From the IMG/VR virus record IMGVR_UViG_3300023180_000018: a stretch of DNA of 64,000 bases. One strand, given 5' to 3'. This document shows positions 2,430 to 46,634 of the stretch, in pieces. This DNA comes from a virus. The translations under genes and the position numbers were made by a program. Under the pieces are notes generated by a model. That model was given only the letters and a program-made list of their open reading frames with translations. It ran no database searches and was not told where the DNA came from. The number at the start of each line of letters is the position of its first letter. Position 1 is the first letter of the stretch.

Positions 2430-4717
2430 TAGATCTTACAGCTTTCACAATCTTCGTCTGATTCTAAAATAGATTGTTCTAGTTCTGGCAAATCTTTTAC
2501 TTCCATTTCTCCAGCACCATCAAACGTATTGTTATAATATAATTGCTTACCGCCATACTTATAAAACATTAAAACGTGTTGAATCATATCTGATAAAGGA
2601 ATTTTTTCATCTTCATAATGTAATGGATTATATGAAGTATTAACTGAAATTCCTTGATCTATGAATTTTTGTAGTACAGCACAAATTTTCAAATAACCTT
2701 CCGGTGATTTTTGATCCCACAATAAATCGTATTTGTTTTTGAGTCTTTGAATACTTGGTACAACCTGCTTTAAAATACCATCTTTTGACTGTTTAACTGA
2801 TACTAAAGCCCGCGGAGGTTCGATTCCATTAGTGCTATTACTTATCTGCGCCGATGTTTCAGCAGGCATGAGTGCCATTAACGTACTATTACGTGGACCA
2901 ATATCAAAAGCTCTTTTACGAAGTGTATCCCAATCCATATTGTATTTTGGCTGTACTAATTCATCCACATCTTTTTTATAAGTGTCAATAGGTAAAATGC
3001 CATTTCCGTATTTACTTTCACACGGCAATTCACATGGACCAATTTCTTCTGCTAAGTCTATAGATGCTTTAATCAAATAGTATGACCATGCTTCAGCATA
3101 TTCATGTAATAATTCTAAATCTGGATTTTGATATGTAGTATCGTTTTTTGCTAACCAAAACGCAAGATTAATAATACCGATTCCAAGAGGCCTTCTATTT
3201 TTTGTAGATAATTCGGCAGCAAGAATTGGATAACTCTGGAAAGACAATAATGCATCTAATGCACGAACAGCTAAAGTACATGGTTTTTCAAAATCTTCTG
3301 GTTTTTTAATTTTACCCCAATTAATTGCAGCCAATGTACACAAACTAATTTCACCTTCATCATCGTATAAATGCTTTAACGGTTTTGTAGGTAAATCAAT
3401 TTCACAACACAAATTACTTTGTCTAATTGGTGCTAATTCTTTCATAAAAGCACCGTGATCATTTGCATGGTCTACATTCATTAAATATACACGGCCAGTA
3501 TCTTTACGTTCTTGAATGAATGATGAAAATAAATCAATTGCAGGAATTGACTTTTTACGAATAGAATATGCACGTTCATATTTTTCATACAATTCTCTAA
3601 ATTTATCTACATCAACATAAAAAGCATCATATAAATCTGGTACATCATTCGGTGAGAATAGAGTAATGTTACCACCTGATAATAAACGTTCATACATTAC
3701 TTTATTAAATTGAACGCCATAATCTAAATGTCTTACTCTGTTTTCTTCTGTGCCTTTGTTGTTTTTAAGGACGAGGATGTCTTCGACTTCGTAGTGCCAT
3801 ATAGGATAATATAAAGTCGCTGCGCCACCTCTGACACCGCCCTGTGAGCACGATTTAACAGCGCTTTGAAAATATTTGAAAAATGGAGTAACGCCAGTAT
3901 GAGAAGTATCTCCATTACGAATCGAAGAACCGATAGCGCGAATGCTACCCGCTCCAATACCAATTCCAGCTTTTTGCGAAACATATTTTACTATAGCCCC
4001 CGCGGTTGCATTGATTGAATCGAGTGAATCATCAGTTTCAATTAAAACGCATGATGAAAATTGTCTTTGAGGAGTTCTAACTCCTGCCATAATTGGTGTT
4101 GGCAAACTGATGTCAAATAAACTAATAGCATTATATAAGTCAACAACCCAATTTAATCGCGTTTCTTTAGGATAGCTATGGAATAATGTCATTGCAATAC
4201 ACATGATAGCCATTTGAGGCGTTTCATATATTTTACCATTAGTTCTATTTTTTACTAAATATTTTCCACGAAATTGTTCCATTGCAGCGTACGTAAAAAG
4301 GAAATCTCTGCTATGGTCAATTTTTGTATCTAAAAAATCTATTTCATCTTTGGAATATTCATCCATAAGAATATCATCATAGATTTTTTCACTTACATTT
4401 TGTATAATATGTGCAGCTAATGTTGGAGGTTCAAATTGTCCAAAAACTTCTTTTCTTAGACCATAGTTAATTAGACGGCCGGCAACATATTGATAATTAG
4501 GAGCATCTTCTGAAATAAGGTCAGCGGCTGCTTTAATTAATGTTTCTTGTACATCTATGGTTTTAATGTTATTATAAAATTGCAAATGGGTTTTAATTTC
4601 TAAATCTGATGCTGATACTCCTGCTAAATCATCACACGCAAAACCAGCAACTTTATGAAATTTATTAAGGTCAAGTGGTTCCTTAGAACCATCACGTTTT
4701 GTTACCATTATGTCCAT
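2429..4717 (-). CDS. nrdA: Ribonucleotide reductase class Ia alpha subunit with ATP cone
   Basis: VTKRDG ATP cone, QFSSCVLI, QSNLCCEI, PAETSAQISN, C-terminal CESCKI. Confidence 0.98.
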   Translation of the reverse strand: MDIMVTKRDGSKEPLDLNKFHKVAGFACDDLAGVSASDLEIKTHLQFYNNIKTIDVQETLIKAAADLISEDAPNYQYVAGRLINYGLRKEVFGQFEPPTLAAHIIQNVSEKIYDDILMDEYSKDEIDFLDTKIDHSRDFLFTYAAMEQFRGKYLVKNRTNGKIYETPQMAIMCIAMTLFHSYPKETRLNWVVDLYNAISLFDISLPTPIMAGVRTPQRQFSSCVLIETDDSLDSINATAGAIVKYVSQKAGIGIGAGSIRAIGSSIRNGDTSHTGVTPFFKYFQSAVKSCSQGGVRGGAATLYYPIWHYEVEDILVLKNNKGTEENRVRHLDYGVQFNKVMYERLLSGGNITLFSPNDVPDLYDAFYVDVDKFRELYEKYERAYSIRKKSIPAIDLFSSFIQERKDTGRVYLMNVDHANDHGAFMKELAPIRQSNLCCEIDLPTKPLKHLYDDEGEISLCTLAAINWGKIKKPEDFEKPCTLAVRALDALLSFQSYPILAAELSTKNRRPLGIGIINLAFWLAKNDTTYQNPDLELLHEYAEAWSYYLIKASIDLAEEIGPCELPCESKYGNGILPIDTYKKDVDELVQPKYNMDWDTLRKRAFDIGPRNSTLMALMPAETSAQISNSTNGIEPPRALVSVKQSKDGILKQVVPSIQRLKNKYDLLWDQKSPEGYLKICAVLQKFIDQGISVNTSYNPLHYEDEKIPLSDMIQHVLMFYKYGGKQLYYNNTFDGAGEMEVKDLPELEQSILESDEDCESCKI

Positions 4718-42670: not shown

Positions 42671-43002
42671 TTTGCCATCCTCGCTATTTCAGTTGCTTGT
42701 TTTTGGTCTATTATAGGTACTGCATTAGATTTATGCATCGTAGCAATACCTTTAATTAGGGTGCCTGTATATTTTGGTGATTCACGACGTCGACATTCTT
42801 TGCTAGATACAATTCCATTAGCAGAAGGATATCGTTTTAGCTCATTACAACGTTCGGTACCCAGCGTGACAGGCGGCACGTATTCTTTAAAGGTAGCTTT
42901 ATATTTTTTACAAACCTCACCTTTAGGCTTACGTTTTTTACGCTTACGACCATGCATATCATAACGCATGTCTGCATAAAACATTATACATACTCCTAAC
43001 AA
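42667..43002 (-). CDS. Conserved basic phage protein
   Basis: YTGTLIKGIATMHKSNAVP motif; start probably MFYADM. Confidence 0.7.
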   Translation of the reverse strand: MLGVCIMFYADMRYDMHGRKRKKRKPKGEVCKKYKATFKEYVPPVTLGTERCNELKRYPSANGIVSSKECRRRESPKYTGTLIKGIATMHKSNAVPIIDQKQATEIARMAK

Positions 43003-43013
43003 TTTAAAGTACT

Positions 43014-43062
43014 ATTCTACCACAATTCATGAAAAAGTAAACCAGCATGTAAGTTATTGTTT
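43014..43062 (-). promoter_or_regulatory. Early sigma70-type promoter with near-IHF box
   Basis: GTTTACT-16 nt-TAGAAT; AAACAATAACTTA at 43050-43062. Confidence 0.6.
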
Positions 43063-43076
43063 TTATTGTTAAAAGT

Positions 43077-43149
43077 CGGATAGGCAGGGATTTGAACCCC
43101 AATCTTTGGCTATGGACACCAACGTGTTTAGTCTTTACACCACCTATCC
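43077..43149 (-). tRNA. Atypical tRNA-like element (nominal anticodon CCA, Trp) or pseudo-tRNA
   Basis: Acceptor GGATAGG/CCTATCC, D stem GTGT/ACAC, anticodon stem TTGGT/GCCAA with loop GTCCATA, T loop TTCAAAT; no encoded CCA end. Confidence 0.5.
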
Positions 43150-43153
43150 ACAA

Positions 43154-43241
43154 TGGTACCTGGAGCCGGACTCGAACCGGCACAGCCTATACGGCCGAGG
43201 GATTTTAAGTCCCTTGTGTCTACCAATTTCACCATCCAGGC
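43154..43241 (-). tRNA. tRNA-Leu(TAA)
   Basis: Cloverleaf with long variable arm, loop CTTAAAA, CCA end. Confidence 0.95.
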
Positions 43242-43254
43242 AAATTGTTGTATT

Positions 43255-43331
43255 TGGTCGGGGTAGAGAGATTCGAACTCCCGACATCCTGCTCCCAAAG
43301 CAGGCGCGCTACCAGACTGCGCTATACCCCG
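43255..43331 (-). tRNA. tRNA-Pro(TGG)
   Basis: CGGGGTATAGCGCAG...loop TTTGGGA...CCA. Confidence 0.95.
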
Positions 43332-43342
43332 AATTTGTAAAA

Positions 43343-43419
43343 TGGCGATCCGTACCGGACTCGAACCGGTGACCTCTAGCGTGACAGGCTAGCATTCTAA
43401 CCAACTGAACTAACGGACC
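43343..43419 (-). tRNA. tRNA-Asp(GTC)
   Basis: GGTCCGTTAGTTCAG...loop CTGTCAC...GCCA. Confidence 0.95.
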
Positions 43420-43424
43420 TAATT

Positions 43425-43508
43425 TGGTGGAAGGGGTTGGATTCGAACCAACGTAGCTCTCGCGTCAGATTTACAGTCTGATGGTTTTAACCACTCACCC
43501 ACCCTTCC
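43425..43508 (-). tRNA. tRNA-Tyr(GTA)
   Basis: Loop CTGTAAA, variable arm, ACCA end. Confidence 0.95.
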
Positions 43509-43599
43509 AATCTTTTAAACCAAGATAAAACAATACACCAGCCAAACTGAATAAAAATAGTACAACGATTTCGTGTGCGTATTGTTCTAACATAATATT

Positions 43600-43675
<76 letters not shown>

Positions 43676-43684
43676 ATTTTTAAT

Positions 43685-43712
43685 ATTCTACACTATTTTA
43701 TGAAAATGTCAA
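43685..43712 (-). promoter_or_regulatory. Sigma70-type promoter for the tRNA cluster
   Basis: TTGACA-16 nt-TAGAAT just upstream of tRNA-Asn. Confidence 0.7.
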
Positions 43713-43897
43713 CCGGCTAGGTAAGTTGTTGATTTGTTTGCTAATTTTTGATATGCTTTATATTTTTCATGAACTTCATCAGCTAAAGCTCTTTTTAAAA
43801 CCTCAATGTCAGATTTTAAAGAATCATTTTCTTTCTTTAATTCTAAAATTTCAATTCTAAGTTGATCGTATATTGAAGTCTTATCTTCTATTTTCAC
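43709..43897 (-). CDS. Small coiled-coil protein
   Basis: Heptad pattern; AGGAG RBS before GTG. Confidence 0.55.
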   Translation of the reverse strand: MKIEDKTSIYDQLRIEILELKKENDSLKSDIEVLKRALADEVHEKYKAYQKLANKSTTYLAG

Positions 43898-43911
43898 AAT
43901 TGCTCCTAAAT

Positions 43912-43987
43912 TGGTGCCGCCACCAAGAATCGAACTCGGGACCTACTGATTACAAATCAGTTGCTCTACCTGCTGAGCTATAGCGGC
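43912..43987 (-). tRNA. tRNA-Thr(TGT)
   Basis: GCCGCTATAGCTCAG...loop TTTGTAA...ACCA. Confidence 0.95.
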
Positions 43988-44150
43988 GATCTTTCTTTCA
44001 TTCCACTTATGTTTTGTTCTTTTCTAGAAAAATACATAAAAGCTCGTATATTATCAATTAAAAATGTAATTTCTTCGTCATTAACATAATTACGTTCATT
44101 GGCTAATTTGTATATAATTTTATCTGTTTTCTTTTGCCAATCCGCTTGCA

Positions 44151-44300
44151 TTATCTACCTTGGCCTCTATACTTTTTGTATGATCGCTTTTTACTTTTAT
44201 TTAAACTAGATGTTTTAAATAAACCATTCCCAATAGATGTTCCTTTTTTTGTAGGTTCTGGTCTTGCAACAGAACCTAATCCTCCACGTGATTTCGCCAT
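44151..44300 (-). CDS. Small basic protein (49 aa)
   Basis: Manual translation MAKSRGGLGSVARPEPTKKGTSIGNGLFKTSSLNKSKKRSYKKYRGQGR; GAGGAG RBS. Confidence 0.7.
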   Translation of the reverse strand: MAKSRGGLGSVARPEPTKKGTSIGNGLFKTSSLNKSKKRSYKKYRGQGR

Positions 44301-44319
44301 AACTATCTCCTCATATTAG

Positions 44320-44649
44320 TGGCAGTATTCTGTTGCCAGGAACTGCCGAAACCCCGCGATGGCTATTGCTGTTTAGGCAGCCATTGCATAGTCGTAAACG
44401 TCATCGTTTGCGTTTATATTTAATTTGATCTTTTAACGTCACTATCAGGACGATTCTCCACAATATTTGCGTTGCCCGTCGAATCCAGAACGCCCCCATC
44501 AGAAATGCACTTACCACAATTGGTTCCTATTAAATGATACTTTTCTATGTCACTTTCTTTTACATTATTACATATACATAAGTACATTTTTGGTGGAGGC
44601 GAGGGGAGTCGAACCCCTGTCCGCACAATACTCCTATTGCTTCTACGAA
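44320..44649 (-). ncRNA. ssrA: Circularly permuted (two-piece) tmRNA; tag (A)ANDDVYDYAMAA
   Basis: Acceptor piece ...GGACAGGGGTTCGACTCCCCTCGCCTCCACCA ends at 44591; coding piece starts GGGGGCGTTCTGGATTCGAC at 44497; 7-bp acceptor stem with G3.U70; tag frame 44411-44373; outer boundaries approximate. Confidence 0.9.
44420..44587 (-). CDS. Miniature Bfd-like Cys-motif peptide encoded in the tmRNA intervening segment
   Basis: MYLCICNNVKESDI...GTNCGKCI resembles Bfd MYVCLCN...G.QCGKC with a shortened spacer. Confidence 0.55.
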   Translation of the reverse strand: MYLCICNNVKESDIEKYHLIGTNCGKCISDGGVLDSTGNANIVENRPDSDVKRSN

Positions 44650-45171
44650 TTAGTAATAAAACACATGGTTATCTATTTCAGTAGCTTTAGACATACTCAA
44701 AGACCATGCTGGTTTAATTCTTGTAGCATGATAAAATAAAGAACCATTAGTATTATCATGATATTTATCATAATCTATTAAAAAACTTTCTGCCAATTTA
44801 TAAACTTTTATATAATATCTATCACTTATTTTTTTATTATCAAATAAATTTCTTTTGTGTCTTTGACAATACCAAGAAAACTGGCAAGCTTTTTTGTTTT
44901 TTTGTTTAACAACTCCACAAATAGTATCTGGAAAATTATAATGATTTACTCTGTTAATAGTAACGTTGGCTACTGCTAACTGACCTTCTAAAGGTTCTCC
45001 AACAGATTCAAAATATATATTAGCTGCTAAGCATTCAATTTCACTTTTATCTATTATATTCACATCTTCTTCAATGTCAACTCTTTCTAATACAATTGAT
45101 TCATTAAATCCATTACGACTAGTAGTATTTACTGAAAACAATAATAAACAGGTCAAAAGTATTATTCTCAT
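44650..45171 (-). CDS. Cell wall hydrolase (SleB/Hydrolase_2 family)
   Basis: Signal peptide, CLAANIYFES.GE, AVANVTINRV, FPDTICGVV, CQFSW, GSLFYHA, HVFY. Confidence 0.92.
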   Translation of the reverse strand: MRIILLTCLLLFSVNTTSRNGFNESIVLERVDIEEDVNIIDKSEIECLAANIYFESVGEPLEGQLAVANVTINRVNHYNFPDTICGVVKQKNKKACQFSWYCQRHKRNLFDNKKISDRYYIKVYKLAESFLIDYDKYHDNTNGSLFYHATRIKPAWSLSMSKATEIDNHVFYY

Positions 45172-45181
45172 AAGAAAACTC

Positions 45182-45754
45182 CTATGGTGTTGAAATCATA
45201 CTCGCAAATCTTTGTTGTTCTTTTAAATATTGTGCATGAATATAATTCTGTTTGTGTTGTATAGTTACTTCACTAAATTCTAACTCAGGTCTTTCTAACA
45301 TAAAAATAATAAAATCAGAAACATCTTGATATTCAATTTTACCGACATCTAGATAATGATTTTCTTTTGCAATTAAACCTAGATTTAAAGTTGTTATTTT
45401 ACATTTCTTATTTGAATTAAAAACTAAATTATTACTTACGTGATTTAACGCTGCTTTTTGCGCAGCATAGATATATCCTTTAGAAATATTAGGATATTGT
45501 GCTCTAGAAGAAATATTAATAATATGTTTTTTATCATCATTGATCCAATGAGAATAAAATTTAATTAATAATTCTGGTTGCCACCAATTTACATGGGCCT
45601 GATTTATAAACATATCACAAGTTAAAGCTTCTGATAAGTTTTCCAACTCACCGGTTTCAGGATTAATTCTACAATTAATCCAATTAGCATTAATATTTTT
45701 ACGCAGATTTTCTGCTAGGCCTGTAGTACCCGTTATTGCGATCTTCATAATCAT
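45182..45754 (-). CDS. Short-chain dehydrogenase/reductase-like protein
   Basis: KIAITGT.GL, FINQA, IINISS, YAAQKAAL (YxxxK). Confidence 0.75.
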   Translation of the reverse strand: MIMKIAITGTTGLAENLRKNINANWINCRINPETGELENLSEALTCDMFINQAHVNWWQPELLIKFYSHWINDDKKHIINISSRAQYPNISKGYIYAAQKAALNHVSNNLVFNSNKKCKITTLNLGLIAKENHYLDVGKIEYQDVSDFIIFMLERPELEFSEVTIQHKQNYIHAQYLKEQQRFASMISTP

Positions 45755-46634
45755 TAATTACCTCAAAACTTTGTTTACCAAAAAGCGTACCATCTACACT
45801 ACACTTATTACAAGGAGAATTACTTCTATCACCCTTACGTAATTTTCTTCGTAATGAGCGCATTGGTTTAGAAAACCATACGTCAAACAAAGAATCTTGT
45901 ATTAAATTACCAATCACGTGTTCTCTTCCCCAATCATTAGAGCAAAAAAGTACATCACCATTCCAATCTACAAACATCTTATAAAAAGGATAGTGACAAG
46001 GTTTACCTTGTAAACTTTTTACATCTGTTTCTTCAATGCCTATCCAATCAATTGTACCAGATCTATTATTTAGTATAAGTCCATGATCTGCCTGTGACCA
46101 ATGCATTCTAAATTTAAATTTATCTGTTGGAACATTTTTCATAATAACTGAGAAATGATCCATTTGCTCTGGACCATCGTAACAATTAATATACAAGAAA
46201 CTTAATCCCTTTTCAAATAAATTTTCTGCATATTCTTGTGTTAAAAAATCACCATTTGTATTACACTCAATAATGTTATCTGGTAATTCATTTCTAAAAC
46301 TTCGAATAATTTCTGGAAATTGATTATTTAAAGTATTTTCACCAAATCCAGACAACGAGATTTTTCCTTTATAGTTTGCTTCTGATAAATGTTTAGCAAT
46401 TAAGCTAGCGCCATAAGTACTCATATTTAAATTACGATTAGGAAATACTTCAGGATTATGACGAGGACAGAATACACATGTTCTGTTACATAATTCTGTA
46501 GTATTAATTTCAATAGTTAAAATAGAACTTAATGGATTATCAAAATCAATATCATTTCTAGAAAAATGAAGTTTTTCTTGTTGTTTTCTATAATCTAAAA
46601 ATTGATCTTTATCTGTAGTTATAATATCATTCAT
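45699..46634 (-). CDS. Radical SAM/SPASM-domain protein
   Basis: CNRTCVFC (CxxxCxxC), GFGE, NTNG, SPASM CHYPF...GDVLFC...IGNL...CNKC. Confidence 0.9.
   Translation of the reverse strand: MNDIITTDKDQFLDYRKQQEKLHFSRNDIDFDNPLSSILTIEINTTELCNRTCVFCPRHNPEVFPNRNLNMSTYGASLIAKHLSEANYKGKISLSGFGENTLNNQFPEIIRSFRNELPDNIIECNTNGDFLTQEYAENLFEKGLSFLYINCYDGPEQMDHFSVIMKNVPTDKFKFRMHWSQADHGLILNNRSGTIDWIGIEETDVKSLQGKPCHYPFYKMFVDWNGDVLFCSNDWGREHVIGNLIQDSLFDVWFSKPMRSLRRKLRKGDRSNSPCNKCSVDGTLFGKQSFEVINDYEDRNNGYYRPSRKSA

Follow-up and report, generated by a model that had tools for sequence, protein, structure and literature searches.

The 64,000-nucleotide stretch of viral DNA analysed here (the window) carries on its minus strand, at 44318-44650, what is very probably a genuine, intact and complete phage-borne circularly permuted (two-piece) ssrA gene. 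The initial annotation had proposed a two-piece tmRNA in a phage genome, and this core reading is borne out by ARAGORN, by two Rfam models and by the T4-like genes that surround the locus. ARAGORN placed a permuted tmRNA at 44282-44683 and read its tag as ANDDVYDYAMAA. The Rfam model tmRNA_permuted (RF04321) matched over its full length (1-213) with a score of 123.6 bits (threshold 47, E 1e-23), and alpha_tmRNA (RF01849) scored 97.2 bits (threshold 50, E 3e-25). The agreement of motifs and models is far beyond chance, which is excluded as an explanation. The gene comprises the following parts:

44591-44650, minus strand: acceptor piece (3' tRNA-like module), placed by Rfam alignments, coordinates and covariation
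44498-44590, minus strand: intervening segment of 93 nt, presumably removed on maturation (Rfam, fold)
44318-44497, minus strand: coding piece, with G1 at 44497 as the predicted RNase P site (Rfam, coordinates, covariation, fold)
44411-44373, minus strand: tag frame with resume codon GCA, 12 codons (ANDDVYDYAMAA) and UAA (ARAGORN, script-located motifs, fold)
44347-44321, minus strand: terminal hairpin with the alpha-type loop CCUGGCAACAGAA (Rfam, per-sequence folding)

Along the minus strand, script-located motifs place GGAC ahead of the T-arm (44618-44602, 5 bp, loop TTCGACT), which is followed by the 3' acceptor strand (44601-44595), a discriminator A (44594) and an encoded CCA (44593-44591). 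The T-loop belongs to the common GUUCGA type. Seven pairs, including G3:U70 (44495 with 44597), join the 3' acceptor strand to its 5' partner, GGGGGCG at 44497-44491; the CCA end at 44591 lies upstream of G1 at 44497 on this strand, which is the permuted gene order. The acceptor piece also carries the 5' strands of the P2 helices, and its own 5' boundary is uncertain, with the alpha_tmRNA model reaching 44704. Within the coding piece are the 5' acceptor strand, a D-loop-like UUCUGGAUUCGAC, the 3' strands of P2, a small hairpin (44452-44437, minus strand), the tag and the terminal hairpin. The tag frame ends in GCU GCC UAA (Ala-Ala and stop), and the predicted fold places the UAA in a hairpin loop, its usual position in tmRNAs. 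In the Rfam alignment the terminal loop CCUGGCAACAGAA aligns to the alpha_tmRNA consensus at the same position, in agreement with the resemblance to the alphaproteobacterial type that the initial annotation had noted for this hairpin. In the window, the outermost helix of the model contains a G-A mismatch. All the element positions proposed earlier (T-arm, acceptor strands, CCA, tag frame and terminal hairpin) proved exact to the base, and the pair list reproduces the proposed 7-bp acceptor stem with its G3:U70 wobble.

The window is AT-rich (G+C about 32%) and encodes a T4-type DNA polymerase, a DnaB-like helicase, NrdA and an alpha-glucosyltransferase, together with RegA, the gp45 clamp, a clamp loader, ThyX, NifU/IscU and Hsp20. 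The best matches of the polymerase among GenBank phages are marine cyanomyophages, at 49% identity; the OM43 phage Melnitz, discussed below, was itself outside this comparison. A blastn search of the tmRNA against GenBank phages returned a 36-nt match only, and megablast of 10 kb against the same phages returned tRNA matches only, so the phage has no close cultured relative there. Given the T4-type genes, the lack of close GenBank phage DNA and a polymerase at most 49% identical to known ones, we assign the window to an uncultured T4-like myophage. The tmRNA gene is flanked by the following genes:

44650-45171, minus strand: SleB-type cell-wall hydrolase gene
44151-44300, minus strand: 49-codon basic ORF (phrog_17967, unknown function) with a GAGGAG ribosome-binding site
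43075-43987, minus strand: seven tRNA genes (Thr, Asn, Tyr, Asp, Pro, Leu and Trp) downstream of the tmRNA (ARAGORN, Rfam)

The hydrolase stop codon adjoins the first modelled tmRNA base, and the 49-codon ORF starts 20 nt past the terminal hairpin. Linkage of a SleB-type hydrolase gene to a permuted tmRNA recurs in viral contigs (L063-L132, and Melnitz at L164:2215-2742); the tmRNA is upstream of the hydrolase in most contigs, whereas the hydrolase is upstream of the tmRNA in the window and in Melnitz. The phage genes for tRNA-Asn (GUU), tRNA-Asp (GUC) and tRNA-Tyr (GUA), at 43343-43675 on the minus strand, read six of the 12 tag codons (Asn once, Asp three times, Tyr twice). They lie within about 1 kb downstream of those codons (44376-44411, minus strand), which may be a coincidence. 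No promoter was found directly upstream of the tmRNA, and the nearest consensus matches fall inside the hydrolase gene. Promoter-like sites were not enriched over shuffles in this AT-rich DNA (14 versus 9.1 +/- 3.3), and we therefore claim no transcription start. A perfect TTGACA-16-TATAAT is present in the hydrolase coding region (45053-45080, minus strand), about 400 nt upstream of the tmRNA; in a related contig, L028, TTGACA-17-TATAAT stands directly upstream of the tmRNA.

Homologues were collected in two scans of IMG/VR contigs, one by a 25-nt T-arm/acceptor string and the other by the hydrolase protein. ARAGORN called a permuted tmRNA in dozens of the scanned viral contigs, usually within 2 kb of a hydrolase homologue. 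The tags of these homologues are all related (ANDxx...[LIM]AA), with frames intact in every ARAGORN-called gene; their ends are kept, while the middle residues and the length (10-14 residues) vary. For analysis of covariation, the Rfam structure was mapped on a MAFFT alignment of 25 viral homologues. Pairing was maintained at 99% in the T-arm, 95% in the acceptor stem and 94% in P2a, with double-sided changes in 14 of the 18 pairs of these three helices, and G3:U70 was kept in 23 of the 25 sequences. The covariation score was 0.351, compared with 0.139 for shuffled alignments (none of 500 reached 0.351) and at most 0.166 for slid controls. The distal helices score poorly in the MAFFT alignment, probably through a problem of register. 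Folding each sequence separately recovered the terminal hairpin in about 20 of the 25 homologues, with differing complementary stems around a conserved loop. The low pairing of the distal helices and terminal hairpin in the alignment probably reflects misalignment and is not counter-evidence. The initial annotation had named a loss of acceptor pairing and tag frame among related phages as grounds for abandoning its reading; instead, relatives keep the acceptor stem paired through compensatory changes, and their tags are intact. The closest tmRNAs, those of L028 and L030, are 92% identical in the acceptor piece and 85% in the coding piece; both contigs, like L140, are 34-39% complete fragments.

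The window tmRNA and that of L133 have alpha_tmRNA as their best subtype. For three homologues with the same nested gene in the spacer (L137, L140 and L141, tmRNAs at about 2885-3258), the best model is beta_tmRNA, at 95-98 bits. Because of this beta typing, the Rfam alpha/beta subtype is an unreliable marker of lineage for phage tmRNAs and not a safe marker of their host.

We also searched cellular genomes for a donor. BLAST of the tmRNA against 401 sampled Alphaproteobacteria matched only a T-arm/acceptor segment of ~35-40 nt, in 207 genomes, and a segment of the same kind and length was all that was matched in 301 sampled Burkholderiales, in 119 genomes (these tallies each include one unpublished genome, G244 and G430, respectively). 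A search for the tag-start pattern in one genome per prokaryote species returned 19 contigs from scattered phyla, with no pointer to a host. Lone T-arm/acceptor fragments are typical of integration sites in ssrA. Many of the viral contigs that share the 25-nt string hold just such a fragment, without an ARAGORN call, and the window gene might by the same token be a non-functional passenger, whether a host ssrA captured recently, a copy in decay or an attachment-site fragment such as temperate phages carry. The probability of this is very low, however, given that the window gene is undamaged in both modules, in the tag frame and in the terminal hairpin, that compensatory changes keep the pairing in homologues from dozens of viral contigs, that the sampled cellular genomes of both groups share at most the short segment described above, and that the genes of the window look like those of a lytic T4-like phage. 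On intactness and covariation, we reject the attachment-site and relic readings.

Phage two-piece tmRNAs have been described before, and the window gene is a further example of a published type, contrary to the novelty that the initial annotation had implied. Melnitz (MZ577097), a myophage of OM43 (Methylophilales), was shown by Buchholz et al. (2022; PMC9004378) to carry a two-piece ssrA of alpha type. They reported 53 two-piece tmRNAs among 18,146 phage genomes, 50 of the 53 being aquatic, and permuted tmRNAs in 17 of 47 Melnitz/pelagimyophage-like contigs (PMC9004378). Of the sequences in a 2025 tmRNA database, 11,946 are permuted, and 79 unique tmRNAs come from phages (PMC11915505). Nor would standard annotation miss the gene, as had been expected: ARAGORN and Rfam call it at default thresholds, and the GenBank record of Melnitz annotates the counterpart. 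With the tools used here, the Melnitz tmRNA scored 113 bits with tmRNA_permuted and 106.7 bits with alpha_tmRNA. Like the window, Melnitz is a T4-like marine myophage whose tmRNA has the permuted order, alpha_tmRNA as its best subtype, an AND...AA tag, an identical terminal-hairpin loop, an upstream cell-wall hydrolase gene and a spacer ORF that runs through G1 in the same frame. The mature parts of the two RNAs are about 71-74% identical, whereas the tags differ and the spacer cargo is unrelated. In Melnitz the hairpin is followed directly by a glutamine aptamer, and a late-transcription coactivator gene lies downstream; neither is present in the window. A search with the aptamer model RF01739 gave no hit with E <= 1 in window positions 43000-46000, and the same search found the Melnitz aptamer at 52.8 bits.

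With the two-piece tmRNA of Caulobacter and other Alphaproteobacteria (Keiler, Shapiro and Williams 2000, PMC16621; RF01849) the window gene shares the permuted order, a precursor that tRNA-processing enzymes would cut (PMC11915505), the G3:U70 stem, the P2 helices, an AND...AA tag and the conserved loop of the 3' hairpin. It differs in being phage-borne, in the absence of SmpB among the ORFs scanned and in its GUUCGA-type T-loop, which is not the alpha-model consensus; at the nucleotide level the sampled Alphaproteobacteria share with it only the T-arm/acceptor segment. One-piece tmRNAs of phages, such as those of cluster C mycobacteriophages, and the tmRNA-like RNA of phage DS6A are likewise phage-borne; they are used with host SmpB (PMC11915505), as the window tmRNA presumably would be. 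Unlike the window gene, the one-piece tmRNAs have the standard, unpermuted order and the DS6A RNA has no tag frame, and these phages belong to other host groups and habitats. Phages have thus acquired tmRNA genes repeatedly. The window adds a T4-like lineage, with a polymerase no more than 49% identical to that of any GenBank phage, to the published pattern in which aquatic T4-like phages often carry an alpha-type two-piece ssrA without SmpB, a pattern that suggests that ribosome rescue is limiting during infection.

The identity, completeness, conservation and covariation of the gene are established from its sequence. For RNase P cleavage, CCA trimming, charging and tagging we infer the course of events by analogy with Caulobacter (PMC16621) and with the permuted tmRNA precursors that tRNA-processing enzymes cut (PMC11915505). 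The locus would be transcribed with the upstream hydrolase gene, or from inside it, as a single precursor. Host RNase P would cleave 5' of G1 (44497), and host 3' processing would end at the encoded CCA (44591). The predicted products, an acceptor piece of ~60 nt and a coding piece of ~180 nt, would be held together by the acceptor stem and the P2 helices, and host AlaRS would charge the RNA through G3:U70. Host SmpB and EF-Tu would then bring it to ribosomes that have stalled on mRNAs broken or lacking a stop codon, where resumption at GCA would add (A)ANDDVYDYAMAA, whose Ala-Ala C-terminus is typical of protease degrons. Compatibility with the SmpB, AlaRS and proteases of the host is assumed. 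A scan of 43 mid-sized ORFs of the window gave no SmpB, and neither did a search of a viral relative of 162 kb that is 100% complete, in which 10 of the control genomes, namely all the named bacteria, were positive. These negatives fit a reliance on host factors. The likely benefit to the phage, and the simplest, would be added rescue capacity during infection, which should be useful because mRNA cleavage is then heavy, ribosomes have to be freed and amino acids recycled.

It is distinctly improbable, in our judgement, that the main effect is instead an altered fate of rescued proteins, or a blunting of host trans-translation, through a phage tmRNA that rivals the host tmRNA for SmpB and for stalled ribosomes and adds a tag whose fate differs from that of the host tag in the speed or route of proteolysis or in adaptor use. 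Such interference would be in keeping with viral tags whose middle residues and length (10-14) vary between fixed ends, with the MAA ending of the window tag where LAA is commoner, and with the inhibition of endogenous tmRNA that the CDS-less tmRNA-like RNA of DS6A is reported to cause in E. coli (PMC11915505); Buchholz et al. (PMC9004378) also proposed that host proteins are tagged selectively. The canonical AND... start and Ala-Ala end of the tag, however, resemble an ordinary degron. No sequence feature tells interference from simple supplementation.

The less ordinary part of the locus is the spacer between the two pieces, which holds a selected, mini-ferredoxin-like reading frame that crosses the RNase P site:

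44420-44587, minus strand: nested ORF of 55 codons plus stop

The initial annotation of the tmRNA had not pointed out that the spacer is coding. The ATG of this ORF is 3 nt past the CCA. Codons 1-29 (44587-44501) fill the spacer and form a conserved, Bfd-like Cys4 module; from 44500 the frame continues through the 5' module of the tmRNA as a tail that is not conserved. The module contains the motifs MY.C.C..V and GT.CGKC, that is, C-x-C ... C-x-x-C, and its four cysteines are invariant in 15 homologues. The 29 codons are under purifying selection: nested copies differ mostly at third codon positions, with dN/dS of 0.03-0.1, and the window and L133 modules differ at one first, two second and 10 third positions, 10 of the differences being synonymous and three non-synonymous. 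A profile of the 29 residues matched bacterioferritin-associated ferredoxin (Bfd) in the PDB with an E of 8e-4, all four cysteines aligning with a 14-residue gap. The cysteine ligands and their flanking motifs align with those of Bfd (PDB 6E6R and 4E6K), from which the module differs in being without ~14 residues between the cysteine pairs and in its location in a tmRNA spacer, which has no counterpart for Bfd. The Pfam family Fer2_BFD (PF04324) scored 13.3 bits on the nested ORF, below its cut-off of 26. By its sequence, the module resembles a shortened Bfd ferredoxin.

We found the Cys4 module at 31 viral loci. It is nested in the spacer of a permuted tmRNA in L133-L143 and lies just upstream of a compact tmRNA in L160-L162. 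PHROGs does not cover it. At other loci (L151-L159 and L163), the module is a free-standing peptide of 34-42 residues with no tmRNA nearby. It also occurs as the N-terminus of a UvsW-type helicase in a fusion (L146-L150, module at 1230 or 3001) and as the N-terminus of a T5orf172-domain protein (L144/L155).

A predicted 10-bp stem closes the spacer and stacks on the acceptor stem (fold z = -3.5); in it, the start codon of the nested ORF pairs with the last codons of the module. All of the nested copies examined (12 of 12, the window and L133-L143) are without a stop codon before the RNase P site, and the excised spacer would consequently be a non-stop mRNA. Were the nested frame translated across the RNase P site, it could compete with maturation. 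As a tentative and rather unlikely proposal, cargo and tmRNA maturation may be mechanistically coupled, in a switch between producing tmRNA and making or destroying a small iron-sulfur protein. Under such coupling, the spacer released by processing would act as a natural non-stop mRNA, and the tmRNA that flanked it would tag its product; ribosomes translating a precursor not yet processed would instead have to open the tRNA-like domain and would block maturation. How RNA processing, translation and trans-translation interact is testable here in a very small construct. In the literature searched, no paper came to light in which the intervening sequence of a tmRNA contains a protein gene; a 'unique' nested tRNA and a repeat element are all that those papers mention in such sequences.

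Across related tmRNAs the spacer ranges from 11 to about 140 nt, with varied cargo or none, and appears as a variable, stem-closed slot for small genes or tRNAs. Cargo other than the Cys4 module is present in L063, L064/L069, L073, L081, L087 and Melnitz (L164:6078-6210). It includes hydrophobic ORFs of 23-32 codons with a stop codon that starts 4 nt ahead of G1; read-through ORFs, among them one in Melnitz that has a ribosome-binding site but is unannotated; and, in L087, a tRNA-Arg(CCG). Empty spacers of 11-13 nt occur in L028/L030 and L160. Cargo and carrier are discordant: the nearest tmRNAs are empty, and more distant ones (75-79% identical) share the module, which is itself about 85% identical in DNA.

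This variety might indicate that the tmRNA gene serves mainly as a transcription and processing platform for whatever the stem-closed spacer carries, with rescue secondary. Long, closed spacers holding the Cys4 module, hydrophobic ORFs, read-through ORFs or tRNA-Arg would be expected of a platform, as would purifying selection on the nested module and, in Melnitz, a spacer that likewise combines a ribosome-binding site with an ORF. We nevertheless regard a platform role as very improbable. L028/L030 and several others have empty 11-13-nt spacers with tmRNAs and tags intact, so the tmRNA is maintained without cargo, and the covariation reflects selection on the tmRNA itself.

Just upstream of the hydrolase are a weak short-chain-dehydrogenase-like gene (45182-45754, minus strand) and a radical SAM/SPASM gene (45699-46634, minus strand), and elsewhere the window encodes IscU/NifU, a peroxiredoxin and 2OG-Fe oxygenases. 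Together these genes suggest an iron-dependent gene set, to which the Bfd-like peptide could be related.
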